From a virus, in IMG/VR virus record IMGVR_UViG_3300025696_000002, positions 1-40,595 of that record: a DNA stretch of 40,595 bases, one strand, 5' to 3'. Shown in pieces: positions 1,295 through 40,595 of the stretch. The first letter of the stretch is position 1, and each line of letters begins with the position of its first letter. The notes under the pieces are model-generated. The model saw only the letters and a program-made list of their open reading frames with translations. It did not search any database and was not told where the DNA came from. The position numbers and the translations under genes are program-made.

Positions 1295-1374
1295 GCTCTT
1301 TAGCGAGCAGGTAGGCCGTACCGGTAACGGCGGCGGGTTCCCTGACCTTCTCTCTGCCTGCTCGACTAAAGCGC
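1295..1374 (+). other. Long imperfect hairpin inside a ~330-nt noncoding leader
   Basis: GCTCTTTAGCGAGCAGG (1295-1311) pairs with CCTGCTCGACTAAAGCGC (1357-1374) with one mismatch and one bulge. Further small stems follow: GCTGGC/GCCAGC and GCCCGCA/TGCGGGC. Confidence 0.5.
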
Positions 1375-1550
1375 ATTACCGCCGCTGGCTGCGGCAATAA
1401 GCCAGCAATGCGTCGCCGTCTGCGTACGACTGGCAGCAACGGGACGCAACTAATTCAACGGCTAAGCCCGCAGGCCATAAATTGCGGGCAAAGAAAAACC
1501 GCGCTGCTGTCGAGGCGGGTACGCGGTTTACCAAACTGGTGAGACGAACT

Positions 1551-1772
1551 ATGAGCGAAAACTCAGAAAATTACAAGGCCGGCGAAACATCTGGCCCAAG
1601 CGGCAGCCTGGAGCTGGATTTATTCGGGATGGTGACTATCACCGGCACCGTCGACGAGCACGGCAATATCCACATGCCCGCAGACGAGTTGCTAATGCAC
1701 TGCCTGCGGATTTTTAAGGGCCGGTTAATGACGCTGGCGGGGATCTATTACAAGCAGTCGGAGGGCGAATGA
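1551..1772 (+). CDS. Hypothetical protein
   Basis: The ORF is open from 1482. The ATG at 1551 (MSENSENYK...) is the first ATG. No motif recognised. Confidence 0.45.
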   Translation: MSENSENYKAGETSGPSGSLELDLFGMVTITGTVDEHGNIHMPADELLMHCLRIFKGRLMTLAGIYYKQSEGE

Positions 1773-1774
1773 GC

Positions 1775-1873
1775 ATGATTAAGCAGTTAATTCTGAGCGC
1801 CTATCTGCGCGGCTTTATACCGGCTGTTTTCGTTTCATTCTGCTTTGCGGTTCTGCCGCTACGGGAGGCGTAA
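1775..1873 (+). CDS. Possible 32-aa hydrophobic peptide
   Basis: Hand-translated MIKQLILSAYLRGFIPAVFVSFCFAVLPLREA. Its TAA overlaps the ATG of the next gene (TAATG). Confidence 0.25.
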   Translation: MIKQLILSAYLRGFIPAVFVSFCFAVLPLREA

Positions 1874-2634
1874 TGCCCCGTAAAAGAGAGATTAAATTCG
1901 GATTTTTTCAGAACGATTTATTGACTGACATATCCCCTTGCGGTCGATTAATGTTTCAGGGCATGTGGTGTTTGGCTGACTTTGAGGGCCGTTTATTAGA
2001 CCGACCAAAGCGAATAAAAGCCGCTGTTATGCCCTACGATAATTTTGATTTTGAGGCCGATTTAGAGGCGCTTGAAAAGAACGGTTTTATCCATCGCTAC
2101 ACGGTTAACGAAATCAGTGTTATCGAAATTTGTAACTTTACGAAACATCAAAACTTGCATCCGAACGAAAAACTTAACGGCTCTGCTATTCCTCGCGAAG
2201 ATGGAAGTGTTCCGCAAGTTACTGATAACGATAAAAAAGTTATTGCGGATAAAAAAATCGCGAGTAAATCGCGAGTAAATCGCGATAAAAAACGTACTAA
2301 TCGGGCTTTTACTTCTTTTACTTCTTTTACTTCTTCTACTTCTTTTAATTACCCCAAACCCCTGGCGGGTTTGGTGGGCAAACTCGATGAGTTTGCAGAG
2401 CACCGGCGTGATCTAAAAAAACCAATGACCGAGCGGGCAGCAATTTTGCTAATCGGCCAGCTGGAAAAGTTTGCCGGTGAGGGCCACGACGTGTCGGCAA
2501 TGATCGACACGGCCATCGTCAACGGCTGGCAGTCCGTTCATCCGCCAAAGAATTTTGGCAGCACGCCAGCGCCGGCAGAGCAGGGCACCGCCGGCCAAGA
2601 TGCCTGGATGCGTGAAATGGGGATCGAGCTATGA
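1873..2634 (+). CDS. Putative replication initiator / replisome organiser (lambda O-like position)
   Basis: 253 aa, lying immediately upstream of and translationally coupled to the primase-helicase. A low-complexity linker (FTSFTSFTSSTSF) is encoded by an internal iteron/AT-rich tract. Confidence 0.5.
   Translation: MPRKREIKFGFFQNDLLTDISPCGRLMFQGMWCLADFEGRLLDRPKRIKAAVMPYDNFDFEADLEALEKNGFIHRYTVNEISVIEICNFTKHQNLHPNEKLNGSAIPREDGSVPQVTDNDKKVIADKKIASKSRVNRDKKRTNRAFTSFTSFTSSTSFNYPKPLAGLVGKLDEFAEHRRDLKKPMTERAAILLIGQLEKFAGEGHDVSAMIDTAIVNGWQSVHPPKNFGSTPAPAEQGTAGQDAWMREMGIEL
2229..2342. repeat. Iteron-like direct repeats plus AT-rich tract (candidate ori) inside the initiator gene
   Basis: 3 x GATAAAAAA; 3 x 11-bp AAATCGCGAGT/AAATCGCGATA (2255-2287); 4 x 9-bp TTTTACTTC/TTCTACTTC (2307-2342). 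Locally much more AT-rich than the flanks. Confidence 0.5.
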
Positions 2635-4463
2635 AAACGATTTCCGATATTTCGCAGATGCTGGCCGACCGCGCCGAGGCGACGGCGGTTGAGCTTCTGC
2701 CGAACGGTAAGCGGGCCGGCAAGGAATGGCAGGCCGGCAGCGTTGACGGCGAAAAGGGTGCCAGCCTGAACGTTTGCATTGCTGGCTCGAAAGCGGGCGT
2801 GTGGTCAGACTTTGCGACTGGCGAGCGCGGCGACCTGATGGATTTGTGGGCGACGGTGCGCGGCGTAGACCTGGGCGAAGCGCTGCAACAGGCCGCGAGC
2901 TGGCTAGGGGTTGAGATGCCGAAGTTTGCTGGCAAGCGCGAGCAGAGCTACCAGCCGCCGGCGGTGCCCAAAACCGCGAGAGTTGCTGGCGCTAGCGACC
3001 CGGCGATGAACTATCTTCGCGACGTTCGGCAAATTCCGCAGGCCGTAATTGAAGCCTACCGGGTGCAGGGCACCGCAACGTCTGTGCTGTTTCCGTTCTA
3101 CCACGGCGACGATCTAAAAATGATGAAGGCGCTGCGGATAGCGCGCATCGACGGCAAGAAGGATATTCGCCCCACTTCCGGCGAGCAAATGCACTGCCTT
3201 TTTGGCTGGCAAGCGGTTAGCGATAAAGCCAGAAATATCACGATTTGCGAGGGCGAAATTGACGCGATGAGCCTCTACGCTTGCGGCTTTACGGCGCTGT
3301 CGGTTCCGTTCGGTGGCGGCGCTGGCGGTAAGCATCAGTGGATTGAAAACGAGTACGACCGGCTGGCTCGTTTTGACACGATTTACCTTTGTTTTGACAA
3401 CGACGAGGCCGGCAAAACAGCGACCGCCGATATTGCCCGCAGACTCGGTGAGCACCGCTGCCGCGTGGTTAAGCTGCCGCTAAAAGATGCCAACGAGTGT
3501 TTGTTGGCCGGCCAGTTAGACCTGGTTAATCGCGGTTTTTTGGCGGCTCAGAGCTTTGACCCGCAGGAGCTACGCAGCGCGTCGGAGTTTTACGACGAGA
3601 TACACGCCAAGTTTTACCCGGATGGCGGCGTAGAGGCCGGCTTGCATCTGCCGTTTTTCGACAGCGAAAAGTTAGTTTTGCGCCCTGCTGAATTATCAAT
3701 CTGGAACGGGGTAAACGGCCACGGCAAGTCGCAGGCGGTCGGACAGATTGTGCTGGAGGCGATGCGTGACGGCAGCCGTTGCTGCGTAGCCTCGATGGAG
3801 TTTAAGCCGGAGATGCTGCTGTGGCGCATTACGACACAAGCCGCTGGCCTAAACGGCGACTCGCCGCCGTCACCTGAATTTATTCGGGAAATTACGAACT
3901 GGTATCAGCGCCGGCTGTGGATGTTCGGGGTTGTCGGTTCGGCAAACTGGGAGCGTTTGCTAGAAGTTTTTCAGTACGCCGCCAAGCGTTACGGCTGCAA
4001 TATCTTTGTTGTCGATTCGCTGCTGAAGTGCGGCATTGACGAGGACGACTACAACGGCCAGAAACGATTCGTAGAGGCTTTGTGCGATTTCAAAAACACG
4101 CACGACTGCCACGTTTTGCTAGTGACTCACAGCCGCAAGGGCGACGGCGAATTCAAGCCGACTGGCAAGATGGATGTTCGCGGCTCCGGCACGATTACCG
4201 ACCTTTGCGACACGTTAGTAAACGTTTGGCGGAACAAGCCGAAAGAGAAAGAAATTAATTCCAGCGACGCCGAAATTCGCGACAAGGCAGCGGACAAGCC
4301 TGATTCGATTTGGTCGGTGCAAAAACAACGGAACGGCAACGGCTGGGAAGGCGGGCGCGGCCTTTGGTTTCATCCGCCGTCGATGCAGTTCCTTCGCGGC
4401 CAGCACGCGAAACCTTTTCAATACGTCGGCTATAGCAGCCAACAATCGGAGCAATACGCATGA
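2631..4463 (+). CDS. Bifunctional DNA primase-helicase (Toprim + DnaB/T7 gp4-like ATPase)
   Basis: 610 aa. Toprim-like ICEGEIDAMSLY ... CFDNDEAG. Walker A NGVNGHGKSQ. Walker B-like NIFVVDSL. C-terminal helicase-like segment LLVTHSRK. Confidence 0.85.
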   Translation: MKTISDISQMLADRAEATAVELLPNGKRAGKEWQAGSVDGEKGASLNVCIAGSKAGVWSDFATGERGDLMDLWATVRGVDLGEALQQAASWLGVEMPKFAGKREQSYQPPAVPKTARVAGASDPAMNYLRDVRQIPQAVIEAYRVQGTATSVLFPFYHGDDLKMMKALRIARIDGKKDIRPTSGEQMHCLFGWQAVSDKARNITICEGEIDAMSLYACGFTALSVPFGGGAGGKHQWIENEYDRLARFDTIYLCFDNDEAGKTATADIARRLGEHRCRVVKLPLKDANECLLAGQLDLVNRGFLAAQSFDPQELRSASEFYDEIHAKFYPDGGVEAGLHLPFFDSEKLVLRPAELSIWNGVNGHGKSQAVGQIVLEAMRDGSRCCVASMEFKPEMLLWRITTQAAGLNGDSPPSPEFIREITNWYQRRLWMFGVVGSANWERLLEVFQYAAKRYGCNIFVVDSLLKCGIDEDDYNGQKRFVEALCDFKNTHDCHVLLVTHSRKGDGEFKPTGKMDVRGSGTITDLCDTLVNVWRNKPKEKEINSSDAEIRDKAADKPDSIWSVQKQRNGNGWEGGRGLWFHPPSMQFLRGQHAKPFQYVGYSSQQSEQYA

Positions 4464-6116: not shown

Positions 6117-6608
6117 ATGGGGCCGCCGTTTCTGTGCATAGACCCTGGCCCCAAGTCCAGCGGGGTTTGCGAATACTTGCCGGAAATAAACGGAGTACGA
6201 AATGCCGACAGCAAAGCCGACAATAACTCACTGATGCTTGATCGAGAAGGCTTGCCCGTACTAATCGAGATGATAGCGAGCTACGGTATGCCAGTGGGTG
6301 CGTCAGTGTTTGAAACATGTGGCTATATCGGCAGGCTAGTACAGCACTACGGCCCTGATAACTGCCTGTTGATCTATCGCAAGGACGTGAAGCTGACGCT
6401 CTGCAACAGTCTTCGAGCAAAGGATGCAAACGTGCGCCAGGCGTTGCTCGACAGGTTCCCCGCCTACGGCGGCGGAAAGACCCCGCAGGTAGGTACAAAA
6501 AACGATCAAGGCCCGTTGTATGGCGTTACGTCGCACGCATGGTCTGCACTGGCGTTAGGCGTTGCTTACGCGGAAAACCCGTCAATCGGCCGGCGGCCAA
6601 ATTTTTAG
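6117..6608 (+). CDS. RuvC-like Holliday junction resolvase (putative)
   Basis: N-terminal FLCIDPGPKSSG resembles the RuvC IDPG..sG catalytic-Asp motif. Size (~163 aa) and position after the replication genes fit a phage resolvase. Confidence 0.5.
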   Translation: MGPPFLCIDPGPKSSGVCEYLPEINGVRNADSKADNNSLMLDREGLPVLIEMIASYGMPVGASVFETCGYIGRLVQHYGPDNCLLIYRKDVKLTLCNSLRAKDANVRQALLDRFPAYGGGKTPQVGTKNDQGPLYGVTSHAWSALALGVAYAENPSIGRRPNF

Positions 6609-6627
6609 CACTGGGGATTATTGAGCA

Positions 6628-7101
6628 ATGACAGAAACCATCGGGCAACGGCGGGCCGGCATGAAGCAGAAAAGCATCGACGAGCTGCTAGCCGGCTGGC
6701 GTACGTATCGTGAGATAAAAAAGGGCATTACTGGGCAAGCGACGAGCTTTAATCACAATTTGCCTGAGGATTTTAAGCCCGAGTACAAGCCGGGCCGCGA
6801 GAATTTTGAAACGCCGATGACTAAGCCGGAGTCGCTATGCCATGCGCTACAGCGCGCGGAGGCTGAGCGCTGGGAATACACGGCTGTGGAAGTGGCCATT
6901 AAGGGCGTCATAGCCGGCTGGGGCGACAGCGGCCTGCGAGTGGCCCTAGCGTATTGCTCGCGCGGCGTGGGCAGCAGCACGATAGCTGACGAGTCGGGCA
7001 TTAAGCGACACGTATGCAGCGCGGTAATCCGCTCCATTAGAGAGCAGGCACCGGCGGCGTTTGAGGGGATAAGGGCGGCGCGGTGGTTGCGGGCGGGTTG
7101 A
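6628..7101 (+). CDS. Hypothetical protein; possible Q-like late-gene regulator
   Basis: 157 aa. It is the last gene of the early-right block. The C-terminal ALAYCSRGVGSSTIADESGIKRHVCSAVIRSI resembles an HTH / sigma region-4-like segment found in Q-family antiterminators. Weak, by eye. Confidence 0.4.
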   Translation: MTETIGQRRAGMKQKSIDELLAGWRTYREIKKGITGQATSFNHNLPEDFKPEYKPGRENFETPMTKPESLCHALQRAEAERWEYTAVEVAIKGVIAGWGDSGLRVALAYCSRGVGSSTIADESGIKRHVCSAVIRSIREQAPAAFEGIRAARWLRAG

Positions 7102-7254
7102 ATTATTTTTAGATAACGATTTGCGACAAAGCGAACTATGGCTAAAACTAAATATATTTAAGTATTGGCGCGTTAAGACAATATATACTAATCATAGTGC
7201 AGTAAACTAGTTGCATGAGTTGAGGGATTAGCCCGAAACGAAACGGAGATAAAA

Positions 7255-7841: not shown

Positions 7842-7999
7842 GCCCCAGCCAACAATGCAAAGCCGCCGGCCTTCGGAGCCTTAAACAGCTCTCTGAGGTA
7901 TGCGGCGAATCAGAGCACACGCTCTATAACTGGCACAAAAACCGGCCTAAAGTTTTCGCAATGTTGATTGTTGCGGCGCTGTTGGAATTTGAGGATTGA
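7838..7999 (+). CDS. Small HTH-like protein, paralogue of the 32137-32298 product
   Basis: Hand-translated 53 aa (GTG start, GTGA overlap): VSPSQQCKAAGLRSLKQLSEVCGESEHTLYNWHKNRPKVFAMLIVAALLEFED. It aligns along its full length with MTPSEQCKAAGLKSLEVLSQASGVSVQTLINWHRSKPKLFALLIKGAVVEVGA, which is also 53 aa. Confidence 0.55.
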   Translation: MSPSQQCKAAGLRSLKQLSEVCGESEHTLYNWHKNRPKVFAMLIVAALLEFED

Positions 8000-8007
8000 G
8001 CCCCGGC

Positions 8008-8037
8008 TTGACGCGTAGTACGTAAACAGAGGATAAT
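8008..8037 (+). promoter_or_regulatory. Candidate sigma70-type late promoter
   Basis: TTGACG (8008-8013), 18-nt spacer, GATAAT (8032-8037), located between the moron island and the packaging genes. Confidence 0.4.
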
Positions 8038-8081
8038 TGCTAACGTGGTAATAGCTGAGTAGCTAAAGCCAGAAAACAAGG

Positions 8082-8642: not shown

Positions 8643-8724
8643 AAATGATATAATTTGAGACGCAAACGGAAGGCGCGACAACGCCAACCGGTTGCTAATC
8701 ACCGCGACTATTAAGGAGTTCGCA

Positions 8725-9594
8725 ATGACTAGAAAGAATAATAGCACCTGCACCAAAGTTAGAACATGTGGCTACTGCGATAGCCAGTACAGGAAGTCAG
8801 AGCAAGGTGGGTATAAGTACTGCTCAGACCCTTGCAAGATTGGCGCTATGAACGCTAAGCAGCGCAAAGGTAGCCTGACTAAGCAGGACATACTTCTACA
8901 GTACGGCCCTAGGCCGCAGAGTAAGCCTGACTGCGCATGGTGTGGCAAAAAAACCAATAGGTTCGATGCGATATTCTGCTCCAAGTCATGCGCCGGTAAG
9001 GGCAGGAAAGGGAACACAGCGCTAAAAGCCAAGCTAGCGGCTATGGCTCCTATCGTATACACAACCTTCTCTAAGCTATGCGTTGAATGCTCGACTAGGT
9101 TCACAAGCAAGACAGAAGCGGTCGATCTGTGCTCGGCTACTTGCATGGCCCTTTCGGGCAACAAAGCTAAAAGAGGTGAAGACCTAAGGGTCTGCACGGT
9201 ATGTGCTAAGCAGTGGGTTAGGCCATACGGTCGAGGGCTGACGCAGGTGTGTAGCGAAGAATGCCGGTCGGAGCGAATCAAGCAAGAGCGCAGTCGCTAC
9301 AAGAGTAAAACTGGAAGGAAGTACTACCAAAGGGCTTTGAAGTTAGGCGCTAAGGCTGAGAGGTTTAGCCCTTTAGACGTGCTGGCTAGAGACGGCTGGA
9401 AGTGCCAGCTGTGCGGATGCTCTACCCCTGAATCACTCAGAGGCAAGAACAAACCAAGATCACCAGAGCTAGATCACATACTGCCGCTGAGCAAAGGTGG
9501 CGACCACACTAGGATTAACACGCAGTGCCTGTGCAGAGCATGTAACGCGGCAAAGAGCGACGCCGAGATTGGTCAGATGCTGTTGATAGGATAG
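8725..9594 (+). CDS. Second HNH endonuclease with long multi-Cys (zinc-ribbon repeat) N-terminal region
   Basis: AAGGAG RBS then ATG at 8725. At least 6 CxxC/Cx2-4C pairs in the first ~200 aa. The C-terminus CQLCG...ELDHILPLSKGGDHTRINTQCLCRACNAAK is an HNH motif. Codon use is visibly more AT-rich than in neighbouring genes. Confidence 0.75.
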   Translation: MTRKNNSTCTKVRTCGYCDSQYRKSEQGGYKYCSDPCKIGAMNAKQRKGSLTKQDILLQYGPRPQSKPDCAWCGKKTNRFDAIFCSKSCAGKGRKGNTALKAKLAAMAPIVYTTFSKLCVECSTRFTSKTEAVDLCSATCMALSGNKAKRGEDLRVCTVCAKQWVRPYGRGLTQVCSEECRSERIKQERSRYKSKTGRKYYQRALKLGAKAERFSPLDVLARDGWKCQLCGCSTPESLRGKNKPRSPELDHILPLSKGGDHTRINTQCLCRACNAAKSDAEIGQMLLIG

Positions 9595-29617: not shown

Positions 29618-30000
29618 TGACATCCATCGCCGCAAGGCTGGCGCTATTGCTAGCCGGCAGGGCCGCGCCCTACGTGCTGGGGTTTGTTCTGGCGGTATCG
29701 CTTAGCGGCTGGCTCTCTTTCGGCGTTGCGCTTTTTCTGGCAAGCGACACTCAAGACGATCTTGATCGCTGCAACGAGAGCGCTATCCGGTTTGACGAGC
29801 GGTTAAAGCTGGCAAATAAATCTGCTGAAAAAGCAGAAGCCAAAGCCCTCGCCGCCGAATCGAGAGTGCCCACAACGATAACCGCGCCGCCGGTAATCAA
29901 GTGGAAAACCCGAACCGTGCCGGCCGAATGCCAGCCGACAGAAACCGAGCGCGAGAACGCACGGAGGGACAACGAATGGGCAGAATCCTTGTTTCGCTAG
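29617..30000 (+). CDS. i-spanin (Rz-like)
   Basis: 127 aa with an N-terminal TM region, an Ala/Lys/Glu coiled coil, and the next lipoprotein gene overlapping its 3' end. Confidence 0.65.
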   Translation: MTSIAARLALLLAGRAAPYVLGFVLAVSLSGWLSFGVALFLASDTQDDLDRCNESAIRFDERLKLANKSAEKAEAKALAAESRVPTTITAPPVIKWKTRTVPAECQPTETERENARRDNEWAESLFR

Positions 30001-30251
30001 CGCTGCTTAGCGCCGCCGGCTGTACGGGCCTTGTGCAACGCGTGCCGGTGCGCGAGCCGCTAAACGTGCCCGAGCATCTGTTAACCGATATTCGAGCCAG
30101 CCACCCGCCGACCGTGTGGGTAGCCGGCTGTGATACCGGCGCTGAGCGTGCGCTGACGCGTGCGGAATTTATCGCCCTGAATCAGTATCTAAAATCGCTG
30201 GAAACGCGAGCAGAGCAGAGCAGGGCGTATTTAACGCCGCTAGCCGAATAG
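29976..30251 (+). CDS. o-spanin (Rz1-like lipoprotein), overlapped architecture
   Basis: GGAGGG RBS, then an ATG at 29976 in the +1 frame inside the i-spanin 3' end. Lipobox LSAAGC. Confidence 0.65.
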   Translation: MGRILVSLALLSAAGCTGLVQRVPVREPLNVPEHLLTDIRASHPPTVWVAGCDTGAERALTRAEFIALNQYLKSLETRAEQSRAYLTPLAE

Positions 30252-30278
30252 CGTCCCAATTTAGCCGTATGCGGCACT

Positions 30279-30333
30279 TATACCCCATGTCGCATAAGTA
30301 CCCAATTTGGGCGGTTTTGCGACATGGGGTATA
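30279..30333. repeat. Perfect 16-bp inverted repeat at the convergence of the late and early-left operons
   Basis: TATACCCCATGTCGCA (30279-30294) / TGCGACATGGGGTATA (30318-30333), with a 23-nt loop containing the palindrome CCCAATTTGGG. CCCAATTT also occurs at 30255-30262. No T-run on either side. Confidence 0.85.
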
Positions 30334-30341
30334 TGTCATTG

Positions 30342-31166
30342 TTAGAGCGCATTGCCCACCGTCGCCACTAGATCATGACTGAGCTTAAAGCCCGCAGCGT
30401 TTTTATGGCCACCGCCGCCGAACGCCGCAGCAATCTCGGAAACGTCAGCGCCATCGGCTGCGGATCGTAGGCTATATGTGCGTCCGGCCTCAGTATCCCA
30501 ATAGCAGCACGAGAAGGGTTCGTTCTTGCTCATGATGTGACCAATGTCGCTGCTGAAAAAATGCGGTGCATTGATAGCGGGAACGTTTACTCCTGCAATA
30601 TCAGCCCTATGAGCATTTGAATCAATCAGCTCGTTAACGTCTTTGAAGTGCTTCCGTAGTATCGCCTTGCCTTCGTCTTTCAGTTCCTGAATATCCGTTT
30701 CCATTAGCTGATCCCAATACAGAAAATCATAGGGGTAACTAAACAAAGCCGAGGTAACTTCTCGGGTTCCTTCCATATCGAAGCGCCAAAGGTCGCGGTC
30801 TTGAATGTGCAGCAGCAGAGCGGGGGCGGTTTGGTTAGGGTTAAAGTGCTCCCACGCTATCATTGCACCGCTACGATCCATGTCGAATGTGGCCGTTACG
30901 TTTTCCGGCAAATCAACAAGCTGAGCCGCCGCGCTCTTGTGGTGGTCTAGTATCAGCACGCTTTTAGCCACAGCTGCTATTTCTAGCAACACTTCGCGCT
31001 GATAGCTGAAATCAACCATGATTACTTCACGGCCAGTGCAGTCAGGTGGCGTCTCGTTGTAAGTACCAGCGTGATAGTCCATCTCTGAATAAAGGGCGTG
31101 GCGAACCGCCCAGGCGGCTCCAAATCCATCGGCACAATTGCCGTGGTAAATGCATAATTTGTTCAT
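30342..31166 (-). CDS. DHH/DHHA1-family phosphoesterase (RecJ/NrnA-like)
   Basis: 274 aa. IYHGNCADGFGAAW (motif I), VDFS (II), LDHHKS (III) and GGGGHKNAAGF (DHHA1 GGGH). Confidence 0.8.
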   Translation of the reverse strand: MNKLCIYHGNCADGFGAAWAVRHALYSEMDYHAGTYNETPPDCTGREVIMVDFSYQREVLLEIAAVAKSVLILDHHKSAAAQLVDLPENVTATFDMDRSGAMIAWEHFNPNQTAPALLLHIQDRDLWRFDMEGTREVTSALFSYPYDFLYWDQLMETDIQELKDEGKAILRKHFKDVNELIDSNAHRADIAGVNVPAINAPHFFSSDIGHIMSKNEPFSCCYWDTEAGRTYSLRSAADGADVSEIAAAFGGGGHKNAAGFKLSHDLVATVGNAL

Positions 31167-31187
31167 TGTAGTTCCTTAGTTAATTCG

Positions 31188-31272
31188 CTCTAACATTTGC
31201 ATGCAGTTGACCCTGTGACTCAACGGCATGTAGTGAATTTATCTGCGGGGCAACTGATGCAAGCAGTTATAT
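31188..31272 (+). repeat. attC-like hairpin element E1 (85 bp)
   Basis: CTCTAAC-AT-TTGCAT[G]CAGTTG[A]CCC...GGG-CAACTG-ATGCAA-GCA-GTTATAT. About 90 percent identical to E3, with identity starting and ending at the two heptamers. Confidence 0.6.
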
Positions 31273-31575
31273 CTCACTCAACCTATCTAGCAGCTTCAGT
31301 GCGCTAGCGTTTGCTCGGTCGAAACTGGTGTGCAGGCTTGGTGACTGAGTGGGTATGTCCTGAGCCGTTTTGCACATTAGTCTAAGCGTAGCTAGCAGCT
31401 CTGGGGCGGCGTGCATTAGTTCGGCGTTGGCTTTATTTTCTTCGTCATTTGGGCCTCCAGCATGCACTACGGCAAGCCGCATGTCATCGCCGCAGATCAC
31501 GCGGCTATTCCCTTCAAAATCCCCGTAGTCGCCTTTTTCGCAAAGCTCCCACGGACCTTCAGTGTGCTTTCCCAT
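31267..31575 (-). CDS. Hypothetical phage protein
   Basis: 102 aa. GPWE...NAELMHAAPELLATL is a pattern I have seen in many small phage proteins. Function unknown. Confidence 0.6.
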   Translation of the reverse strand: MGKHTEGPWELCEKGDYGDFEGNSRVICGDDMRLAVVHAGGPNDEENKANAELMHAAPELLATLRLMCKTAQDIPTQSPSLHTSFDRANASALKLLDRLSEI

Positions 31576-31597
31576 AGTTCAGTCCTTTAGTGGTGAA

Positions 31598-31681
31598 ATC
31601 TAACAATCGCGTGAAGCCGACCCTGTGAGCCTGCTGCACGTATCTACATTCTACTTCGGGCGGCTTACGCAACAGTTAAGT
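31598..31681 (+). repeat. attC-like hairpin element E2 (84 bp)
   Basis: ATCTAAC-AATC-GCGT[G]AAGCCG[A]CCC...GGG-CGGCTT-ACGC-AACA-GTTAAGT. The left half closely resembles the aadA1 attC as I recall it (GTCTAAC-AATTC-GTT[C]AAGCCG[A]CGCC). Confidence 0.6.
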
Positions 31682-32035
31682 TGCAAGCTCATCGGCCAAT
31701 TGCGGATAAAGCTTCTTGTGCCTGGCAAGCTCAGAATCAGAAAGCCCGCTATTGAACTCTTGCGGCTCTCCGCATTCGCCTTTTAAATAAACAAAGCAGT
31801 CTAGCCCGCACCCGCCTGAAATGCCCACGTTAAAACACTCGTCCGCGCCTACGGGATAGTTGCCGGTATCAGCAAGCGAGTTGCAGTGCTGCAAAGCCTC
31901 TAACTCATTCTTTGGAGGTGCTTCGTTTAGTATCTTGATTTTGCAGGCGCGCCCAACAACTTTATCGGAATGCCAGCGGCCAAACTTTTCATTGTTCGCT
32001 GAAATGCGCTTGCTAATTAATTCCTGCTTATTCAT
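31676..32035 (-). CDS. Hypothetical Cys-rich protein
   Basis: 119 aa containing CFNVGISGGCGLDCFVYLKGEC. Confidence 0.55.
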   Translation of the reverse strand: MNKQELISKRISANNEKFGRWHSDKVVGRACKIKILNEAPPKNELEALQHCNSLADTGNYPVGADECFNVGISGGCGLDCFVYLKGECGEPQEFNSGLSDSELARHKKLYPQLADELAT

Positions 32036-32057
32036 CTTCTAATCCTCTAGTGTTGCA

Positions 32058-32142
32058 ACCTAACATTTGCATGCAGTTGACCCTGTGAGCCTACGGCATG
32101 TAGTGAATTTATCGGTGGGGCAACTGATGCAAGCAGTTATGC
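32058..32142 (+). repeat. attC-like hairpin element E3 (85 bp)
   Basis: ACCTAAC-AT-TTGCAT[G]CAGTTG[A]CCC...GGG-CAACTG-ATGCAA-GCA-GTTATGC. Confidence 0.6.
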
Positions 32143-32298
32143 CCCAACTTCCACCACCGCGCCCTTAATAAGCAGCGCGAATAACTTGGGCTTACTTCGA
32201 TGCCAGTTGATAAGCGTCTGAACACTTACCCCGCTGGCTTGTGATAAAACTTCGAGGCTTTTCAGCCCCGCTGCTTTGCATTGCTCGCTGGGTGTCAT
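32137..32298 (-). CDS. Small HTH-like protein, paralogue of the 7838-7999 product
   Basis: 53 aa from the internal ATG (ATGA overlap with the upstream gene): MTPSEQCKAAGLKSLEVLSQASGVSVQTLINWHRSKPKLFALLIKGAVVEVGA. Confidence 0.55.
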   Translation of the reverse strand: MTPSEQCKAAGLKSLEVLSQASGVSVQTLINWHRSKPKLFALLIKGAVVEVGA

Positions 32299-32495
32299 GT
32301 GTCTATTTCTCCGAGCAATAGCGTGTTGGTGGCGCTGCAAAGATCAAAAGCGATGCCGTCCGCGTTCTCAATAGGCACCTGCTTTGCCCATCCGCCTTGG
32401 TCATAGCTGCCGCCTCCAGTCTCATGGCTAACAACCTCAACCGTATAACTTTCATCAAATTGGTCTAGCCACTTTTTTAGCTGCTTAACATTCAT
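32295..32495 (-). CDS. Hypothetical protein
   Basis: 66 aa, 4-nt overlaps on both sides. Confidence 0.5.
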   Translation of the reverse strand: MNVKQLKKWLDQFDESYTVEVVSHETGGGSYDQGGWAKQVPIENADGIAFDLCSATNTLLLGEIDT

Positions 32496-32719
32496 TTGAT
32501 TAGCTCCAGCTGAGTGATTGCCGAGTAATAACCAAAGCGCCAGTTTTTCGGCTTGCTTCGCATTTCGTCGCGGAGCTTGGCTATTGCTTCGTTAATTACA
32601 TCTTCGCGGGTTTGCGCCACCTCAGCCCTGAGAGCTACGCACGCTTGCCGCCAGTTGTTGCGGGGCTTATTTCCCGCGTGGCGGCTGTTAAAGCCCGCCA
32701 TTGCCTCGGCTGCTGTCAT
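32492..32719 (-). CDS. Hypothetical protein
   Basis: 75 aa, coupled to its neighbours. Confidence 0.5.
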   Translation of the reverse strand: MTAAEAMAGFNSRHAGNKPRNNWRQACVALRAEVAQTREDVINEAIAKLRDEMRSKPKNWRFGYYSAITQLELIK

Positions 32720-32931
32720 TACTTGCAGAGTCCGGTTATGTCGTACTCTTCTCCGATAACGTAGCAGTCTGCATTTATTCCGTCTTTCAGCTCGAAAAGA
32801 CTAACGCTAATAACTTGGCCGTTTCTTGCAATTCTTGCGGGGGCTTCAAACATTGCGTTCTCTTCGATGCTGATGTAACCGATAAACTTTGCCATTTTCG
32901 TCTGCCCTTGTTTGTGTGGTTGCTGTTTCAA
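32719..32931 (-). CDS. Hypothetical protein
   Basis: 70 aa, preceded by an AT-rich spacer with a promoter-like pair. Confidence 0.5.
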   Translation of the reverse strand: MKQQPHKQGQTKMAKFIGYISIEENAMFEAPARIARNGQVISVSLFELKDGINADCYVIGEEYDITGLCK

Positions 32932-32938
32932 TAAAGCC

Positions 32939-32967
32939 AGTATACTTAAACTGTTTTAGTAAAACAA
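32939..32967 (-). promoter_or_regulatory. Candidate internal sigma70 promoter (leftward)
   Basis: On the minus strand: TTGTTT (32967-32962), 17-nt spacer, TATACT (32944-32939), within a visibly AT-rich 70-nt spacer. Confidence 0.4.
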
Positions 32968-33007
32968 GACCCAAAGGCAAATAAACTTAAATAACTTTAG
33001 CTTTGTG

Positions 33008-33092
33008 GCATAACAACAGCGTGGAGCGTGACAAGCCTTGCCACTACGCCTACGGCTCCGTTATCGGCTTGCACCTCACGCAACAGTTATAT
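33008..33092 (+). repeat. attC-like hairpin element E8 (85 bp)
   Basis: GCATAAC-AACA-GCGTG[G]AG[C]GTG[A]CAAGCC...GGCTTG-CAC-CT-CACGC-AACA-GTTATAT. The stem sequence is unrelated to E1/E3 but the pairing and bulge positions are kept. Confidence 0.6.
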
Positions 33093-33095
33093 CCG

Positions 33096-33311
33096 CTAGT
33101 CATCATTAATCAGCAAAGCCAAAGCCAAAAGCGCCCGCTCCTTGTTCAAATGCTGCGAGCGCTGCGATACGCTTATCGCTACGTTGCCGGTTGGAATGTG
33201 CCGCAGCTTAACTCCGTTGGGAATTTGGCCGGTTTGCATTCCGCCTTTTGGCTTCGGCGGCCATAGCTCGCCTTCTATATCGTCGGGCTTTAGCATTTCA
33301 ATCTCCCGCAA
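33096..33311 (-). CDS. Stand-alone class-I release factor domain-3-like protein with GGQ replaced by GGM
   Basis: 71 aa. [40 protein letters not shown] aligns without gaps to the RF2-type [41 protein letters not shown] (from memory). Confidence 0.65.
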   Translation of the reverse strand: [71 protein letters not shown]

Positions 33312-33322
33312 GCCGTGGCCTG

Positions 33323-33529
33323 CTATAAATATTCAACGTTCCAAGTGGGGTGCAAGTTTAGGCGAGTCTTGCAGCCCGGCACCCTGTCATCTGGCAGCAC
33401 TCGAAGCCGAGCACCGCGCGCTGATGTAATGCGGCCAAACCAAACCCCGCCAAAACCATCTACAAACTTTATTCTGCCGCCTCGCTTGGCTGGTACTTTG
33501 TAGTAATCCCTTATGTATTTCATGCTCAT
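33323..33529 (-). CDS. Hypothetical protein
   Basis: 68 aa, basic. Confidence 0.5.
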   Translation of the reverse strand: MSMKYIRDYYKVPAKRGGRIKFVDGFGGVWFGRITSARGARLRVLPDDRVPGCKTRLNLHPTWNVEYL

Positions 33530-33547
33530 AATTTATACCTGCCGCAA

Positions 33548-33626
33548 ATCTAACAATCAGTTGCATCGGACATTGGCTGCGCCAACGCTTCGCGGCCTCC
33601 GGCTGCCGTTGAACTAGCAGTTAGGT
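33548..33626 (+). repeat. attC-like hairpin element E4 (79 bp)
   Basis: ATCTAAC-AATC-AGTT[G]CATCGG[A]CA...TG-CCGTTG-AACT-AGCA-GTTAGGT (one mismatch in the 6-bp block). The upstream gene reads through the right-hand heptamer and stops 4 nt inside the element. Confidence 0.55.
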
Positions 33627-33982
33627 GCCTCCGGAACTTCATACCAGTGGGTGTAAGGTGGCTGCTCTTTTGCCCCCGTAAATGGAATTTCGACAGGCGC
33701 GGCGATTAAATAGTGTTCGTAGTTTTGAGCATGAACTTGCCATTGGTCATCACTCCAAATGTCATCTTCATAAAGTTCGTTTCCGTCACCATCTCGCCAA
33801 AACATACGAAGCCATCGCCCGTCTTTTGGTGCCGTCGCTATCGGCTGCCAGCCGTTCTTTTCAGCTTCTCGTAGCAATCGCCGTACAATTTGAACCGCAT
33901 TATCTGTATCAACTTCTGTTCGGAAGTCTAAATGAACTAGCCGCTCAACTATTCCCCGCGCTTTTTCGTCTCGTTCGCTCAT
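33614..33982 (-). CDS. DUF551-like protein
   Basis: 122 aa containing GWQPIATAPKDGRWL. Confidence 0.6.
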   Translation of the reverse strand: MSERDEKARGIVERLVHLDFRTEVDTDNAVQIVRRLLREAEKNGWQPIATAPKDGRWLRMFWRDGDGNELYEDDIWSDDQWQVHAQNYEHYLIAAPVEIPFTGAKEQPPYTHWYEVPEAPNC

Positions 33983-34005
33983 AACCTTAATCCTCTAGTG
34001 TCGCA

Positions 34006-34089
34006 ACCTAACAACGGGTTGCATTAGACACCGCTACGCGGCGGCGCTTCGCTTGGCCCTGCGGGCTGCTACTGAACCCACAGTTATGC
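34006..34089 (+). repeat. attC-like hairpin element E5 (84 bp)
   Basis: ACCTAAC-AAC-GGGTT[G]CATTAG[A]CA...TG-CTACTG-AACCC-ACA-GTTATGC (one mismatch). Confidence 0.55.
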
Positions 34090-34098
34090 CCCTATCCC

Positions 34099-34491
34099 TT
34101 AACCGGCAGTCATTGAGGCAAGCAGCTTAGGGGTGATGTCATGCTCAAGCCCAAACGCCATTACTTCACCCGGCATTGCAGGCTCGATAACGCTGAACAT
34201 GCCCTTGTAATCGCCAAGCTCATTGATGATCACTCCTAGCCACTTCTGACCGCCATCAAAGCCAGACTCGCCCCATTCAAGCCCCTCGGTCTTCTCGCCT
34301 TGGCAAAATTCGTCTGGGTTATTCTCATTGGTCGCAATGGTTTTGCCTTCGCAAACAGCTATGTGGTGCGACAGCTCGTCAACCTCATAAGGCTCGCCGG
34401 TGTCTTCATCATATTTCGTGCGCTTCTTTCGGATCGCTTGGATCTCAACAGGGAAGCCAAAAACAATGTCGGTGCTGTAACTAATGCTCAT
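34099..34491 (-). CDS. Hypothetical protein
   Basis: 130 aa, acidic, no motif. Confidence 0.55.
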   Translation of the reverse strand: MSISYSTDIVFGFPVEIQAIRKKRTKYDEDTGEPYEVDELSHHIAVCEGKTIATNENNPDEFCQGEKTEGLEWGESGFDGGQKWLGVIINELGDYKGMFSVIEPAMPGEVMAFGLEHDITPKLLASMTAG

Positions 34492-34554
34492 ATCAAATCC
34501 GTCTTTATCAGTTAAGCGCCAGCGGTGCTAGCGCGGTAAGCCCGTATGAGAGGG

Positions 34555-34613
34555 GTATAACAAAACGCTGGAGAGCGACCCGCTAGCGCGGGCGCCTCAG
34601 CTCTGTGTTATGC
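34555..34613 (+). repeat. attC-like hairpin element E9 (59 bp, minimal form)
   Basis: GTATAAC-AAAAC-GCTG[G]AG[A]GCG[A]CCCGC-tagc-GCGGG-CGC-CT-CAGC-TCTGT-GTTATGC. Confidence 0.55.
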
Positions 34614-34919
34614 GTCAGCGTCAGCCATTGGCGGGCTTTTGTAAATCTTGCCCGTTCTAGGGTTACATGGTTTGCACTGGCCAAGGTCGATGTACAAAGT
34701 CCACCGGCCAAAAACAACAAACTTAGTTCTGATTCTTGACCATTCGCCTTTGCGGAATTTCCACATAATCCCGAAACCAAAATGTCGTGGGAATCCTATG
34801 TGCCACCATCCGTCCATGATTCGCCACCTAAAAAACGGGTTAAACGTTTTTACAAGGCCGTTAGAATAACGCGTGGTCGATGGCGTTCTTTCAAAATACG
34901 TCTTTTTCATATTATTCAA
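34608..34919 (-). CDS. Hypothetical protein
   Basis: 103 aa, Trp/Phe/Arg-rich. Confidence 0.5.
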   Translation of the reverse strand: MNNMKKTYFERTPSTTRYSNGLVKTFNPFFRWRIMDGWWHIGFPRHFGFGIMWKFRKGEWSRIRTKFVVFGRWTLYIDLGQCKPCNPRTGKIYKSPPMADADA

Positions 34920-34935
34920 TCCTCAAATAGCTTAC

Positions 34936-35019
34936 GCATAACAAAAGAATGCAGTTGACACCCTTTCCACTACCGCTTAGCGTCCGTTTCAAGTGCGCGA
35001 ACTGATTCAACAGTTAGTT
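34936..35019 (+). repeat. attC-like hairpin element E6 (84 bp, weaker inner stem)
   Basis: GCATAAC-AAAA-GAAT[G]CAGTT...AACTG-ATTC-AACA-GTTAGTT. Confidence 0.45.
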
Positions 35020-35026
35020 GCCTCGT

Positions 35027-35164
35027 TTAACTGGCGCGCATGCCATTATAAAAAACACCAACAGCAGCGCCACCGGTAATGCCGAGCATGAAAGCCATAA
35101 ACGCAACGCCAAGCACTGGATAAATTGCGTTCGCTATTGCCTTTAGCTTTTCCATTCCATCCAT
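35027..35164 (-). CDS. Possible 45-aa membrane peptide
   Basis: Hand-translated MDGMEKLKAIANAIYPVLGVAFMAFMLGITGGAAVGVFYNGMRAS. Below the ORF-track cutoff. Confidence 0.3.
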   Translation of the reverse strand: MDGMEKLKAIANAIYPVLGVAFMAFMLGITGGAAVGVFYNGMRAS

Positions 35165-35217
35165 CCCGCAACCGTTCCGGCTGCTCATTTATGTGTTCCG
35201 CTACTGCTTAGCAGAAG

Positions 35218-35412
35218 CTAGTTTGCTTGCTCATTGCACGGCGCTGAATCGCTTACATAGTTCTCATAGCGAATTAGCGCAGCTTTTAGAAAGCCACGAA
35301 CTTCGTCAACGCTCGGGCCGCCTAATTTCACGAACTCAGGATTTGCCAGCGCAAAAAAATAGTCGCTAGCGTGCTCTGCAACTTTCTCCAATAACTGTTT
35401 CTCGTTACTCAT
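35218..35412 (-). CDS. Hypothetical protein
   Basis: 64 aa. Confidence 0.5.
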   Translation of the reverse strand: MSNEKQLLEKVAEHASDYFFALANPEFVKLGGPSVDEVRGFLKAALIRYENYVSDSAPCNEQAN

Positions 35413-35430
35413 AAATCCTCGCTATCGCAA

Positions 35431-35514
35431 ATATAACAACGGCTTGCAGTTGACCCCGTGAGCCAGTGCGCTTTATTAATAATTTTGGTGGGGCAACTGA
35501 ACCCACAGTTAAGT
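35431..35514 (+). repeat. attC-like hairpin element E7 (84 bp)
   Basis: ATATAAC-AAC-GGCTT[G]CAGTTG[A]CCCC...GGGG-CAACTG-AACCC-ACA-GTTAAGT (one mismatch). Confidence 0.55.
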
Positions 35515-35748
35515 TGCAAACTCAGCCGGCTTTAATGGTTGCGGCTGCCAGTGGGTCGCATCTATAAAATTGCCGTGTGAGGCCCATCCTTCTTCGTCGT
35601 AATCCACGCGCTCCCAGGTCTCGAAAACTCCGTGCTCATTAAATCGGCAGCGGCTTTCCCAACAGCCCGTACCTTCGCCGCTTGTAATCCACGCCTGGAA
35701 CTCGCTCCCGTCATTTGGCGCTGTCTCTATCGGTTGCCAGTCACTCAC
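35509..35748 (-). CDS. DUF551-like protein
   Basis: 79 aa, GTG start. Contains DWQPIETAPNDGSEF. Confidence 0.6.
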   Translation of the reverse strand: MSDWQPIETAPNDGSEFQAWITSGEGTGCWESRCRFNEHGVFETWERVDYDEEGWASHGNFIDATHWQPQPLKPAEFAT

Positions 35749-38575: not shown

Positions 38576-38698
38576 TCAACCTCCAAAAATCTGAAAAATC
38601 AAAAGCCCGGCTACAAGCGCGAAGGCCACGGCTGTTAGCGCCGTTACGGGCAGCTCAGGCTTATGCGCGCTGCTGATTAGTGGGCATTTATGCTGCAT
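38576..38698 (-). CDS. Possible 40-aa membrane peptide
   Basis: Hand-translated MQHKCPLISSAHKPELPVTALTAVAFALVAGLLIFQIFGG. Confidence 0.3.
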   Translation of the reverse strand: MQHKCPLISSAHKPELPVTALTAVAFALVAGLLIFQIFGG

Positions 38699-38873
38699 GG
38701 CTGGCCTCGCTGCTGTTTTTGTTCTTCATCGACACGGCGATAGCTGACAATTGGTCTAGCTGGGCGACGCTCAGAAAGCAGAACGTTCTATCGAGAAGGC
38801 CGGTCAGGTCTTTGCGGGTTACTACTGGCGATTCGCCTTGCTCCGGCTGTTTTGCTACTGATTGATTAGCCAT
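38688..38873 (-). CDS. Hypothetical protein
   Basis: 61 aa, coupled to its neighbours. Confidence 0.5.
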   Translation of the reverse strand: MANQSVAKQPEQGESPVVTRKDLTGLLDRTFCFLSVAQLDQLSAIAVSMKNKNSSEASHAA

Positions 38874-39058
38874 TACGCTGCCACCTCCACTAAATCCAGC
38901 GGCGACCGGCTGCGGTCGAAAACGCGGCCTTTGCTATTCCATCCCAGCGGATAGCGTGAAAACGCCACGCGGCCGGTGATGGTGCCGTCTTGCCGGCGGG
39001 ATAGGTGCGTTACCGCATCGCCCGCGCGGGTGGTGTATCGCTTGATTTGGTTTTTCAT
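38873..39058 (-). CDS. Hypothetical protein
   Basis: 61 aa, basic. Confidence 0.5.
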   Translation of the reverse strand: MKNQIKRYTTRAGDAVTHLSRRQDGTITGRVAFSRYPLGWNSKGRVFDRSRSPLDLVEVAA

Positions 39059-39508: not shown

Positions 39509-39832
39509 TCAGTCTTTGGCGGGGCTTTGCTCGTGCATCGCGCTAACTATCTTGTATAGATAGTCGCGCTCGGATTTGTCTGCCGACCTAAAAAGTTCGA
39601 TGAGCTTCTTTTCTCGTTCGTCAGAAATAAAAAGCGCATCGTCACCTAATAACTCACTCACACTTACACCACATAGCTTAGCTATATCTTTAATTTGCTG
39701 AATACTTGGCTCTCTGGTGCCGGTTAGGTAGTGACCAACCCCGGATTTTGAATAGCCAAGCTCTTTAGCAATATCAACGTAAGTGAATCCTTTTTCTTTT
39801 AGCAAGCCCCGCGCTCTGTCGTACCAGCGCAT
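39509..39832 (-). CDS. XRE/Cro-C1-type HTH repressor (CI-like, no S24 peptidase domain)
   Basis: 107 aa from the ATG at 39832. FTYVDIAKELGYSKSGVGHYLTGTREPSIQQIKDIAKLCGVSVSELL is a classic HTH_XRE. The longer 201-aa ORF upstream has no coding-like features. Confidence 0.75.
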   Translation of the reverse strand: MRWYDRARGLLKEKGFTYVDIAKELGYSKSGVGHYLTGTREPSIQQIKDIAKLCGVSVSELLGDDALFISDEREKKLIELFRSADKSERDYLYKIVSAMHEQSPAKD

Positions 39833-39911
39833 AGAAGCAATACTACTCTTACCGCAGACGGTTGCTGTCCCGATATTGTAGCCATTACTGCGCGCTGGCG
39901 ACACGGCCGGC

Positions 39912-39940
39912 TTGCTTGTGATTTCCCGGTATCGTAGACT
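39912..39940 (+). promoter_or_regulatory. Candidate rightward early promoter (PR-like)
   Basis: TTGCTT (39912-39917), 17-nt spacer, TAGACT (39935-39940). The Cro-like ATG lies 7 nt after the -10 with no SD, which implies a leaderless or near-leaderless mRNA. Confidence 0.5.
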
Positions 39941-39947
39941 TGACTGC

Positions 39948-40163
39948 ATGAGCAATAAACCCCTTGACCTTATCCTTAAAACCACGCGGCAAATAGATTT
40001 TGCTGCAAAGGTTGGCATATCCAATAAAACGGTTAGCGCCGTCGTGAATGGTCGCCGGCATTTCAGTCGCGAATCGGCTATTAAAATTGCCGCCGCATAC
40101 CCGCATGTAAGCATTGCTGAGGCGCTTATGTATCAGCCAGCAACTGCCGAAGCCGCCGCATGA
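39948..40163 (+). CDS. Cro-like HTH regulator
   Basis: 71 aa, divergent from the repressor. HTH: RQIDFAAKVGISNKTVSAVVNGRR. Confidence 0.65.
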   Translation: MSNKPLDLILKTTRQIDFAAKVGISNKTVSAVVNGRRHFSRESAIKIAAAYPHVSIAEALMYQPATAEAAA

Positions 40164-40230: not shown

Positions 40231-40548
40231 ATGAGTGAAGCATCTTCCGACGGCGTTGCAATCGCCAGCAATCCACTTGCAAGGGCTCGCAAGATGCAGT
40301 CTGTGCTCTTGCAGCGGCTAGCTGGCAATCAGATAGCCATTGCCACGGCCAAGGGCGTTAGCGAATCCATAGTGAGCCGCAGCAAAGAGCACATCGGCGA
40401 AATTATGGAGCTGATCGCGTTTAGCGGCCTAAAGCTGGTATCGGTCGACATGGAGTGTTTTGACCGCGACGAGGTGACGGCGTTTGAAACGCTGGCTGAA
40501 AAGTACATGCAGCTAAAGCGCCAGGTTAGAACAGGGGAGTTGATTTGA
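40231..40548 (+). CDS. CII-like HTH regulator (putative)
   Basis: 105 aa from the ATG at 40231. IAIATAKGVSESIVSRSK resembles the CII-type HTH (..S.vSRwk). The stop overlaps the TTG start of the ParB-like gene across the circular junction. Confidence 0.45.
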   Translation: MSEASSDGVAIASNPLARARKMQSVLLQRLAGNQIAIATAKGVSESIVSRSKEHIGEIMELIAFSGLKLVSVDMECFDRDEVTAFETLAEKYMQLKRQVRTGELI

Positions 40549-40595
40549 AGATTAAGCCTTTTGTAGCGCCTGAAATTCAGGAATGCAGAATTGGA
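40469..40595. repeat. Second copy of the terminal duplication (= 1-127)
   Basis: Identical by direct comparison. Confidence 0.95.

Follow-up and report, generated by a model that had tools for sequence, protein, structure and literature searches.

Integron recombination sites (attC) have been reported from phage genomes. In the study by Qi, Rajabal, Ghaly, Tetu & Gillings (2023, Front Microbiol; PMC9892861), 10,705 phage genomes were screened, yielding three complete integrons, one In0 (an integrase without cassettes) and 17 clusters of attC sites lacking integron integrases (CALINs), mostly with 2–4 predicted sites, and the integrase IntI1 recombined five of six phage sites tested, two of them from Tetrasphaera phage TJE1. 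Since phage CALINs have already been published there, the locus described in the current study is not new in kind. It lies in IMG/VR virus record IMGVR_UViG_3300025696_000002, of which positions 1 to 40,595 were analysed (the window, 40,595 nt), and consists of nine elements, E1 to E9, between positions 31188 and 35514 which, judged by sequence and base pairing, are true integron attC recombination sites.

The ends of the window (1–127 and 40469–40595) form an exact 127-nt direct repeat, and a 40,609-bp metagenome contig (L076, ENA ERZ27295451 k141_661646) has the same sequence in another permutation, indicating that it represents a complete, circularly assembled phage genome of ~40.5 kb (circular or terminally redundant). 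The same genome was found at 100% identity in two further samples (L078, L081). No tyrosine recombinase or integrase was found in the large open reading frames (ORFs) with Pfam, or in the complete genome by tblastn with IntI1 and Vibrio IntIA. The nine sites start 381–950 bp apart, that is, there are at least two attC within 4 kb with no intI nearby, which is the definition of a CALIN. As the genome is complete and has no integron integrase, the array is a CALIN, and the integrase-less cluster proposed in a first-pass annotation of this DNA was borne out, with attC-model matches on the plus strand only.

The attC model used (R1) was a surrogate covariance model trained on 15 class-1 attC sites, 14 from five class-1 plasmid arrays and that of aadA7 from Qi et al. 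(PMC9892861). The aadA1 attC was confirmed in about 1,960 plasmids before the model was built; the sites were aligned (alignment A1), and a hand-drawn structure of R boxes, L boxes and apical part was checked prior to model construction. The first-pass annotation had placed nine attC-like elements in the window and had called for a search with an attC covariance model on both strands. When both strands of the full 40.6 kb were scanned filter-off, the top eight matches of this foreign model were eight of these elements, at their exact coordinates and all on the plus strand, with scores of 15.5–35.8 bits (seven of them at 22.3–35.8). The top match in the window was E5 (34006–34089, 84 nt, 35.8 bits), followed by E4 (33548–33626, 79 nt, 33.9 bits), E2 (31598–31681, 84 nt, 33.2 bits), whose L box AAGCCGAC/GCGGCTT is as in aadA-type attC sites, E3 (32058–32142, 85 nt, 31.4 bits), E9 (34555–34613, 59 nt, 28.7 bits) and E1 (31188–31272, 85 nt, 28.5 bits, E = 3.8e-5 over the whole window). 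E7 (35431–35514, 84 nt, 22.3 bits) is the right border of the array, and E6 (34936–35019, 84 nt, 15.5 bits) has a degenerate inner stem. The weakest element, E8 (33008–33092, 85 nt), ranked 11th with 11.5 bits (E = 1.4 over the whole window, 0.19 within the region), against noise of ~12 bits. On the minus strand no element scored above 9.3 bits.

Control scans gave the expected sites and little else. In the V. anguillarum integron fragment in MK672802 exactly 16 attC sites were found (15.2–29.2 bits), while no score above 11.1 bits occurred in the 27 kb of phage genes of that record. All three published sites of phage TJE1 were found (25.8–33.2 bits), and in 587 kb of unrelated viral contigs, the negative control, the single match was a copy of E7. 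With seven elements at 22–36 bits, the scores in the window match or surpass those of genuine Vibrio chromosomal attC sites and of the experimentally validated TJE1 sites. Rfam, searched at gathering thresholds, gave no match for the elements.

All nine elements start with a heptamer of the form xYYTAAC and end with GTTAxxx (GTTA followed by an RRY-like triplet). The TAAC/GTTA pair is invariant; the outer three heptamer positions pair only partly, and the first base of E1, a C, departs from R. Inside this outer stem lie 3–5 unpaired bases, then a long imperfect inner stem and a variable loop, which is the heptamer-bounded anatomy with unpaired bases and an imperfect inverted repeat that had been described earlier. 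Extrahelical bases occur on the plus-strand 5' arm in eight of the nine. The pattern claimed for these bulges (a G, about 6 bp, an A) held with small variations, apart from the degenerate E6 and from E8 and E9, which have three bulges each, share a common architecture and are similar in sequence (a repeat family). The identity of E1 and E3 does run from heptamer to heptamer, at 94% across 81 nt. The elements as a whole fall into several sequence sub-families of 59–85 nt in which the structure is kept, and attC sites range from about 57 to 141 nt. Modelled pairs were formed at 88.1% in the nine aligned elements, compared with 72.5 ± 2.0% in shuffles (0 of 500 reached the observed value) and 25–37% when partners were slid, and the L-box helix was 96.6% paired, with compensatory double changes in 5 of 10 pairs, although these pairing figures are somewhat inflated because the nine-element alignment was fitted to the model. 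The compensatory variation claimed from the letters alone was thereby recovered.

Families can also be recognised among the leaders that separate R'' from the next start codon (18–25 nt left of E3, E5, E4 and E7). In mRNA sense the leader of E3 and E5 is GTTAGGTTGCRACACTAGAGGATTA, and that of E4, E7 and the site attC_Y in contig L143 begins GTTAKATTTGCG..., suggesting that the conserved unit reaches past attC into the ribosome-binding region.

One attC subfamily of the window also occurs in ordinary integron arrays. E1, E3, E6 and E7 have the common pattern TAACA-N6-TGCAGTTGAC-N38-68-AACTGA-N7-8-GTTA, which is present in at least 120 metagenome contigs. Eighty of these were examined, and 208 R1 matches (E <= 0.01) were laid out in them as classical arrays, for example 14 sites in 8.5 kb and 18 sites in 13.7 kb. 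A microbial-mat metagenome contig (L145) encodes an IntI homologue (6151–7107) that is 46% identical to IntI1 over 320 residues, and a TGCAGTTGAC-subfamily attC (7956–8051) follows on the same strand, ~850 bp downstream. The integrase gene and the attC top strand of this contig are apparently co-oriented, unlike in class-1 integrons. In 54 of 59 cassettes of the environmental arrays the longest ORF was on the attC top strand. This canonical orientation fixes the polarity independently of the class-1 sites, so that the plus strand of the window is the attC top strand.

All cargo of the array is on the minus strand and is thus inverted compared with canonical cassettes, as the first-pass annotation had argued from the placement of the bulges. 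The strand specificity of R1, gene calls, PHROG and Pfam matches and codon statistics agree in this: all 15 genes run opposite to the attC top strand. PHROG matches were obtained for 8 of the 15 minus-strand ORFs, including a DHH phosphoesterase, an RF-1-domain protein and a small regulator, and codon log-odds trained on the phage core genes were positive in 13 of the 15. Plus-strand ORFs were considered as canonical cargo and rejected, with negative codon scores in all ten and no PHROG match in the five tested. On these comparisons the cargo consists of phage-type genes with the phage's own codon usage. It is co-oriented with the leftward early operon, which implies that it is presumably read through from the early promoter, and the cassette mRNA corresponds in sequence to the recombinogenic bottom strand.

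Nine cassettes of 0.4–0.95 kb can be delimited within 30342–35508, each running from TTRRRY through one to four minus-strand ORFs to an attC that ends in G. Cassette 1 (30342–31266) holds the DHH phosphoesterase gene (30342–31166; phrog_4771, E = 1e-104) and E1. The DHH homologue of Vibrio phage P2 is tightly packed between genes with no space for an attC, suggesting that this is an ordinary phage family which is cassette-borne here. Cassette 2 (31267–31675) consists of ORF102 (31267–31575; PF27050, phrog_1273) and E2, and cassette 3 (31676–32136) of ORF119 (31676–32035) and E3. In cassette 4 (32137–33086), four small overlapping ORFs (32137–32340, 32295–32495, 32492–32719 and 32719–32895), with matches to phrog_409, phrog_14647 and phrog_5305, precede E8. 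Cassette 5 (33087–33620) carries the RF-1-domain ORF (33096–33311) and ORF68 (33323–33529) with E4, and matched PF00472, phrog_20323/35727 and phrog_2730. Cassette 6 (33621–34083) includes ORF122 (33614–33982), whose last two codons and stop lie inside E4, together with E5. Cassette 7 (34084–34607) comprises ORF130 (34099–34491) and E9; cassette 8 (34608–35013), ORF100 (34608–34910) and E6; and cassette 9 (35014–35508), ORF53 (35027–35188), ORF64 (35218–35412) and E7. The first backbone gene, ORF79 (35509–35748, minus strand), has as its stop codon the TTA of the right heptamer of E7. The reported coincidence of the heptamer TTA (after G) with the stop codon of the adjoining minus-strand ORF was found at all six positions, 31267, 31676, 32137, 34608, 35509 and 30342.

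The product of the minus-strand ORF at 33096–33311 (66–71 aa) matched the RF-1/peptidyl-tRNA hydrolase domain PF00472 at 1.8e-6, which is below the Pfam cutoff, as well as phrog_20323; possibly this cassette carries an ArfB-like ribosome-rescue fragment. A motif of ~27 nt, ATCCATCCCGCAACCGTTCCGGCTGCT on the plus strand, occurs at 35158–35185 and at 935–962 of the reverse complement of L143, in both cases inside a cassette and just upstream (in mRNA sense) of a small ORF, the two ORFs being unrelated. This motif may be a mobile translation-initiation or junction module.

On its left the array is bordered by a long hairpin with two 30-nt arms (30276–30336), an inverted repeat at the point where late and early genes converge, followed by the heptamer GTTAGAG (30341–30347, plus strand), whose TTA (30342–30344) is the stop codon of the DHH gene. 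No attC lies to the left of this junction, and the sequence is constant leftward and variable rightward of its G↓TT (the arrow marks the junction here and below). Three different first cassettes join CATTG↓ in the window, in L143 and in L032. The 69-nt module formed by hairpin and CATTG↓TTA (window 30276–30344, L032 2692–2760, reverse complement of L143 637–706) is ~80% conserved in the otherwise unrelated L032/L077 phages, where the stem parts are largely kept and the loop differs, and it always borders the array. Since three different first cassettes are attached to this constant hairpin and G↓TTA, the junction seems to behave like an attI-side border; the module may be a terminator, an attI-like partner or both. 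A complete integron would have intI, attI and a cassette promoter (Pc) beside the array, whereas the window has no intI and its leftmost G↓TTAGAG is a putative attI by position. The possibility that hairpin and junction are a disguised full attC was rejected, as no R'' partner and no R1 match were found there.

Related contigs from other samples indicate that natural variants and unrelated phages differ by whole cassettes. Source metagenomes, probably of North Sea origin, are JGI 3300001344, 3300009476, 3300009508 and 3300025881 and ENA ERZ27295451, ERZ23491538 and ERZ807171. L143 (equivalent to L209–211), which was seen in at least four samples, matches window 31254–32544 at 100% and 29639–30344 at 98% identity, and has in place of DHH and E1 two cassettes, one of ORF78, ORF86 and a 79-nt attC and one of ORF69 and a 63-nt attC. 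The left breakpoint is exactly CATTG↓TTA and the right one lies within the final 19 nt of attC. The replacement ORFs are also inverted and stop at the TTA after G. A second set of contigs (L032/L074/L079/L082 and L077/L090) has a lambda-type portal and ClpP-capsid fusion instead of the HK97-type module of the window. The block E6-ORF53/76-ORF64-E7 is common to the window and these unrelated backbones at 98.5–100% identity, with 100% over 447 nt of cassette 9 in L032/L077 and 98.5% in E6.

In the overlapping contigs L077 and L090 the array extends rightward beyond E7 by a further six attC sites, of which the four in L077 scored 26.6–52 bits. Here (L077 1–2200; L090, reverse complement, 1–3200) inverted phage-sense cassettes are interleaved with two orphan cassettes of canonical orientation, ORF139 and ORF169, whose attC sites are 109–111 nt long and scored 50–52 bits. 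ORF169 of L077 had no homologue beyond itself among 5.8 billion proteins. The ORF139 cassette, with its 111-nt attC, has two dispersed copies. One starts with the TT after ...CCCACAG↓ and the other with the TT after ...CCCGGTG↓, and their identical attC sites end in G↓TTATGC and G↓TTATAT, showing that the repeated unit is exactly one cassette. The G↓ of E7, in turn, is joined to four different sequences on its right in different genomes. In these alignments, the end points at the left of L143, at ORF139 and at the right of E7 are of R' type (G↓TT), as integron recombination predicts. Right of E7, L079/L082/L083 and L032 have one and the same backbone (GTCAGCCCACC..., with a KilA-N gene), joined to the G↓ of E7 by either TTAGAG or TTAAGT at the place of window 35509–35514.

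Taken together, these results favour, with a probability of roughly 0.85, a reading in which the locus consists of nine true attC sites forming an integrase-less array of nine cassettes with inverted cargo, turned over as whole cassettes by an integrase acting in trans. An integron integrase supplied by an integron-bearing host would excise, insert and exchange cassettes on folded single-stranded attC, and the result would be a shuffling platform for small accessory early genes. Because the orientation of the array is fixed, only cassettes with genes antisense to attC would be expressed from the early promoter, which would select for the inverted class. Speculatively, folding of the bottom strand could be favoured by its being the non-template strand of an operon under strong transcription.

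Several observations weigh against this reading. R1 is a surrogate that is separate from the published IntegronFinder and HattCI models, and its scores for E8 and E6 were weak. As single-stranded DNA (ssDNA) the folding energies of the elements were unexceptional compared with shuffled sequences (z from -0.06 to -3.96), E9, at -3.96, alone being clearly exceptional; since most elements fold no better than their shuffles, stability was not used as support. The uniformly inverted cargo is unlike what a simple capture of bacterial cassettes predicts. Host assignment by the portal protein was rejected, as the best cultured relatives had less than 40% identity and diverse hosts. Gene-content breakpoints had been predicted at G↓TT, and they do coincide with heptamers: each of the seven is at most a few bases away from an R-box heptamer, and such positions make up an estimated ~7% of the region. 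They also occur, however, at the left heptamer (R''). One such break is at E6, where different cargo lies to the left in the window (GCATAA↓C) and in L032 (ATCTAA↓C). At the other, ORF64 and its leader run into ATATAA↓CAA, followed by E7 in most genomes and by a different attC of 56 nt in L133. Neither is produced by canonical bottom-strand exchange; occasional top-strand exchange or microhomology recombination at AA↓C would be required. Moreover, L032 and L079 have the same backbone and differ only in the hexamer after G (TTAAGT vs TTAGAG), a difference confined to TTRRRY which a single-crossover exchange at G↓TT does not explain. Finally, all breakpoints lie in short conserved motifs, so that microhomology recombination is not formally separable from site-specific exchange.

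This last point leads to the rival explanation that survives best, although it is considered improbable, namely that the elements are dispersed repeats shuffled by general, ERF/SSB-mediated or microhomology recombination with no integrase, in the manner of T4-type promoter/stem-loop modules (PeSLs) or lambdoid linkers. The phage does encode ERF and SSB, breakpoints are found at both element ends including R'', each in a motif common to all copies, and the leader sequences adjoining R'' fall into families. However, the motifs shared at the breakpoints are only 4–9 nt long, and at the leftmost junction three different cassettes join at the same G↓TT although no repeat lies to the left of it. Repeat shuffling is likewise difficult to reconcile with the dispersed second copy of one cassette, bounded at either end by G↓TT, as unequal crossing-over would duplicate a contiguous block. 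In addition, the elements are bona fide attC sites by both sequence and structure.

According to a second and still less probable explanation, the elements only look like attC and are hairpins that act at the RNA level between the cistrons of the early transcript, as RNase III sites, mRNA stabilisers or translational insulators. They are indeed intercistronic on the transcribed strand, mostly 18–25 nt upstream of the next start codon, and the fold forms about equally well in the minus-sense RNA and on the plus strand; it is also known that attC sites of canonical arrays influence translation of downstream cassettes. A secondary RNA-level role could therefore exist in addition, but it does not account for detection by a DNA-recombination-site model strand-specifically and in the non-mRNA sense, for the occurrence of the sequence family in bacterial cassette arrays and beside an IntI gene, or for the change of gene content exactly at the element ends. 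Neither Rfam matches nor terminator-like tails were seen. The TTGAC and -10-like hexamers pointed out by the first-pass annotation were not upheld, as a consensus scan found no promoter-like site and no intrinsic terminator in any element, and the promoter/terminator reading was rejected. The RNase III-site and promoter/stem-loop alternatives it had raised are not needed as primary explanations.

That the array is a passive relic, a piece of bacterial integron captured once with no continuing recombination in phages, can hardly be credited: although PMC9892861 reads the 16-attC array of Vibrio prophage Va_90-11-286_p16 in this way, and although L077/L090 carry some canonical-orientation orphan cassettes, the cargo belongs to phage protein families with phage codon preferences and is inverted throughout, compared with 54/59 canonical cassettes in bacterial arrays of the same attC family. 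Moreover, cassettes distinguish near-identical phage genomes, and identical cassettes occur in unrelated phage backbones. Each of these three explanations accounts for part of the data and not for the whole.

Beyond the array of nine attC sites with an integrase in trans, a more specific proposal can be put forward tentatively, at rather less than even odds. Phages may keep a pool of their own of phage-sense cassettes, small early genes with an attC ahead of each in the mRNA whose recombinogenic bottom strand is the non-template (mRNA-sense) strand, and these may be swapped between unrelated phages by host integrases at a dedicated locus, the attI-analogue hairpin/G↓TTA. Both R boxes would serve in such swaps, with bottom-strand exchange at G↓TT and top-strand exchange at AA↓C. 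Phage mosaicism and the turnover of accessory, perhaps counter-defence, genes would then regularly proceed by integron recombination, and genes would acquire attC in a non-canonical orientation, which bears on the origin of cassettes. The usual view of cassette polarity accommodates neither the uniformly inverted cargo nor the breakpoints at both R boxes, and these features may bear on cassette creation. Qi et al. (PMC9892861) left open the importance of phage attC sites to the phage and their activity in nature, and both questions are addressed by the present data. The idea that phages use host integron integrases for the exchange of accessory genes becomes open to experiment, and the DHH phosphoesterase, the RF-1-domain protein and the small orphan proteins provide candidate cassettes for functional work.

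The array forms the promoter-distal end, the last ~5 kb, of the leftward early operon, which runs from a helix-turn-helix regulator (39509–40114) through ERF, DUF1367, a YbcO-like gene and a run of small genes to the DHH phosphoesterase at 30342. The rightward genes encode primase/helicase, SSB, HNH, TerL, portal, prohead protease, capsid and tail proteins. A 300-aa protein encoded at 8692–9594 (plus strand), just upstream of the terminase genes, has a C-terminal HNH endonuclease domain, and HNH beside terminase is the usual arrangement in cos-type HK97-like phages. Upstream of ERF in the early operon are two adjacent 61-aa genes (38688–38873 and 38873–39058); short direct repeats (38364–38385/38674–38695 and 38551–38574/38850–38873) lie at the starts and ends of these genes and a neighbour, which suggests tandem paralogues.

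Further searches for relatives returned little. Megablast of the region against 50,697 phage records gave no match, and a scan of a genome collection with the hairpin-junction pattern gave only a chance match, in a Caulobacterales metagenome-assembled genome. In IMG/VR, a protein search with the 309-aa neighbour found nothing, a 24-nt pattern gave zero loci, and an 18-nt loop pattern gave 67 loci, 66 of which were chance matches.

Among known systems, T4-type PeSLs and T7 early RNase III sites are likewise repeated intergenic hairpins of the early region associated with modular gene content. PeSLs carry promoters and the T7 sites serve RNA processing, whereas the elements described here have no promoter consensus, match attC with a DNA-strand polarity and belong to a family found in integron arrays. 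The record of Vibrio anguillarum prophage Va_90-11-286_p16 (MK672802) is also a phage record with a long attC array, found by the same model. That array is a captured piece of the host chromosomal integron with intIA, housekeeping neighbours, 16 homogeneous attC sites of ~126 nt and mostly canonical cargo, in contrast to the heterogeneous sites (59–85 nt) and phage-type cargo of the window.

With bacterial integron arrays and CALINs (sedentary chromosomal integrons; defined as in IntegronFinder by Cury et al. 2016 and Neron et al. 2022) the locus shares R''/R' heptamers, an unpaired spacer, an L box with extrahelical bases and a variable loop, as well as cassettes of 0.4–0.95 kb, stop codons in the R-box TAAC, and duplication or replacement in units bounded by G↓TT. 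It differs from bacterial integron arrays in having no intI or attI in cis, in its phage replicon, its antisense cargo and some R'' breakpoints, and in that transcription enters opposite the attI-like junction.

In the literature searched, including the available part of PMC9892861, no description was found of nine sites in an early operon, of uniformly inverted phage-type cargo or of a conserved hairpin-junction border module, nor of cassette replacement, duplication and sharing between unrelated phages with breakpoints at both R boxes. The closest systems are the phage CALINs of Tetrasphaera phage TJE1 and Pseudoalteromonas phage PH101, in which, according to PMC9892861, an integrase-less attC cluster also lies beside a hairpin or terminator. 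The TJE1 sites are of the same general form (25.8–33.2 bits with R1, compared with 22–36 here). The published phage CALINs have mostly 2–4 predicted sites compared with nine, and the cassette turnover between phage variants that is visible here is not described in the available part of that report (PMC9892861). The genes of TJE1 lie on the attC top strand, in the canonical orientation, whereas those of the present array all lie opposite to it.

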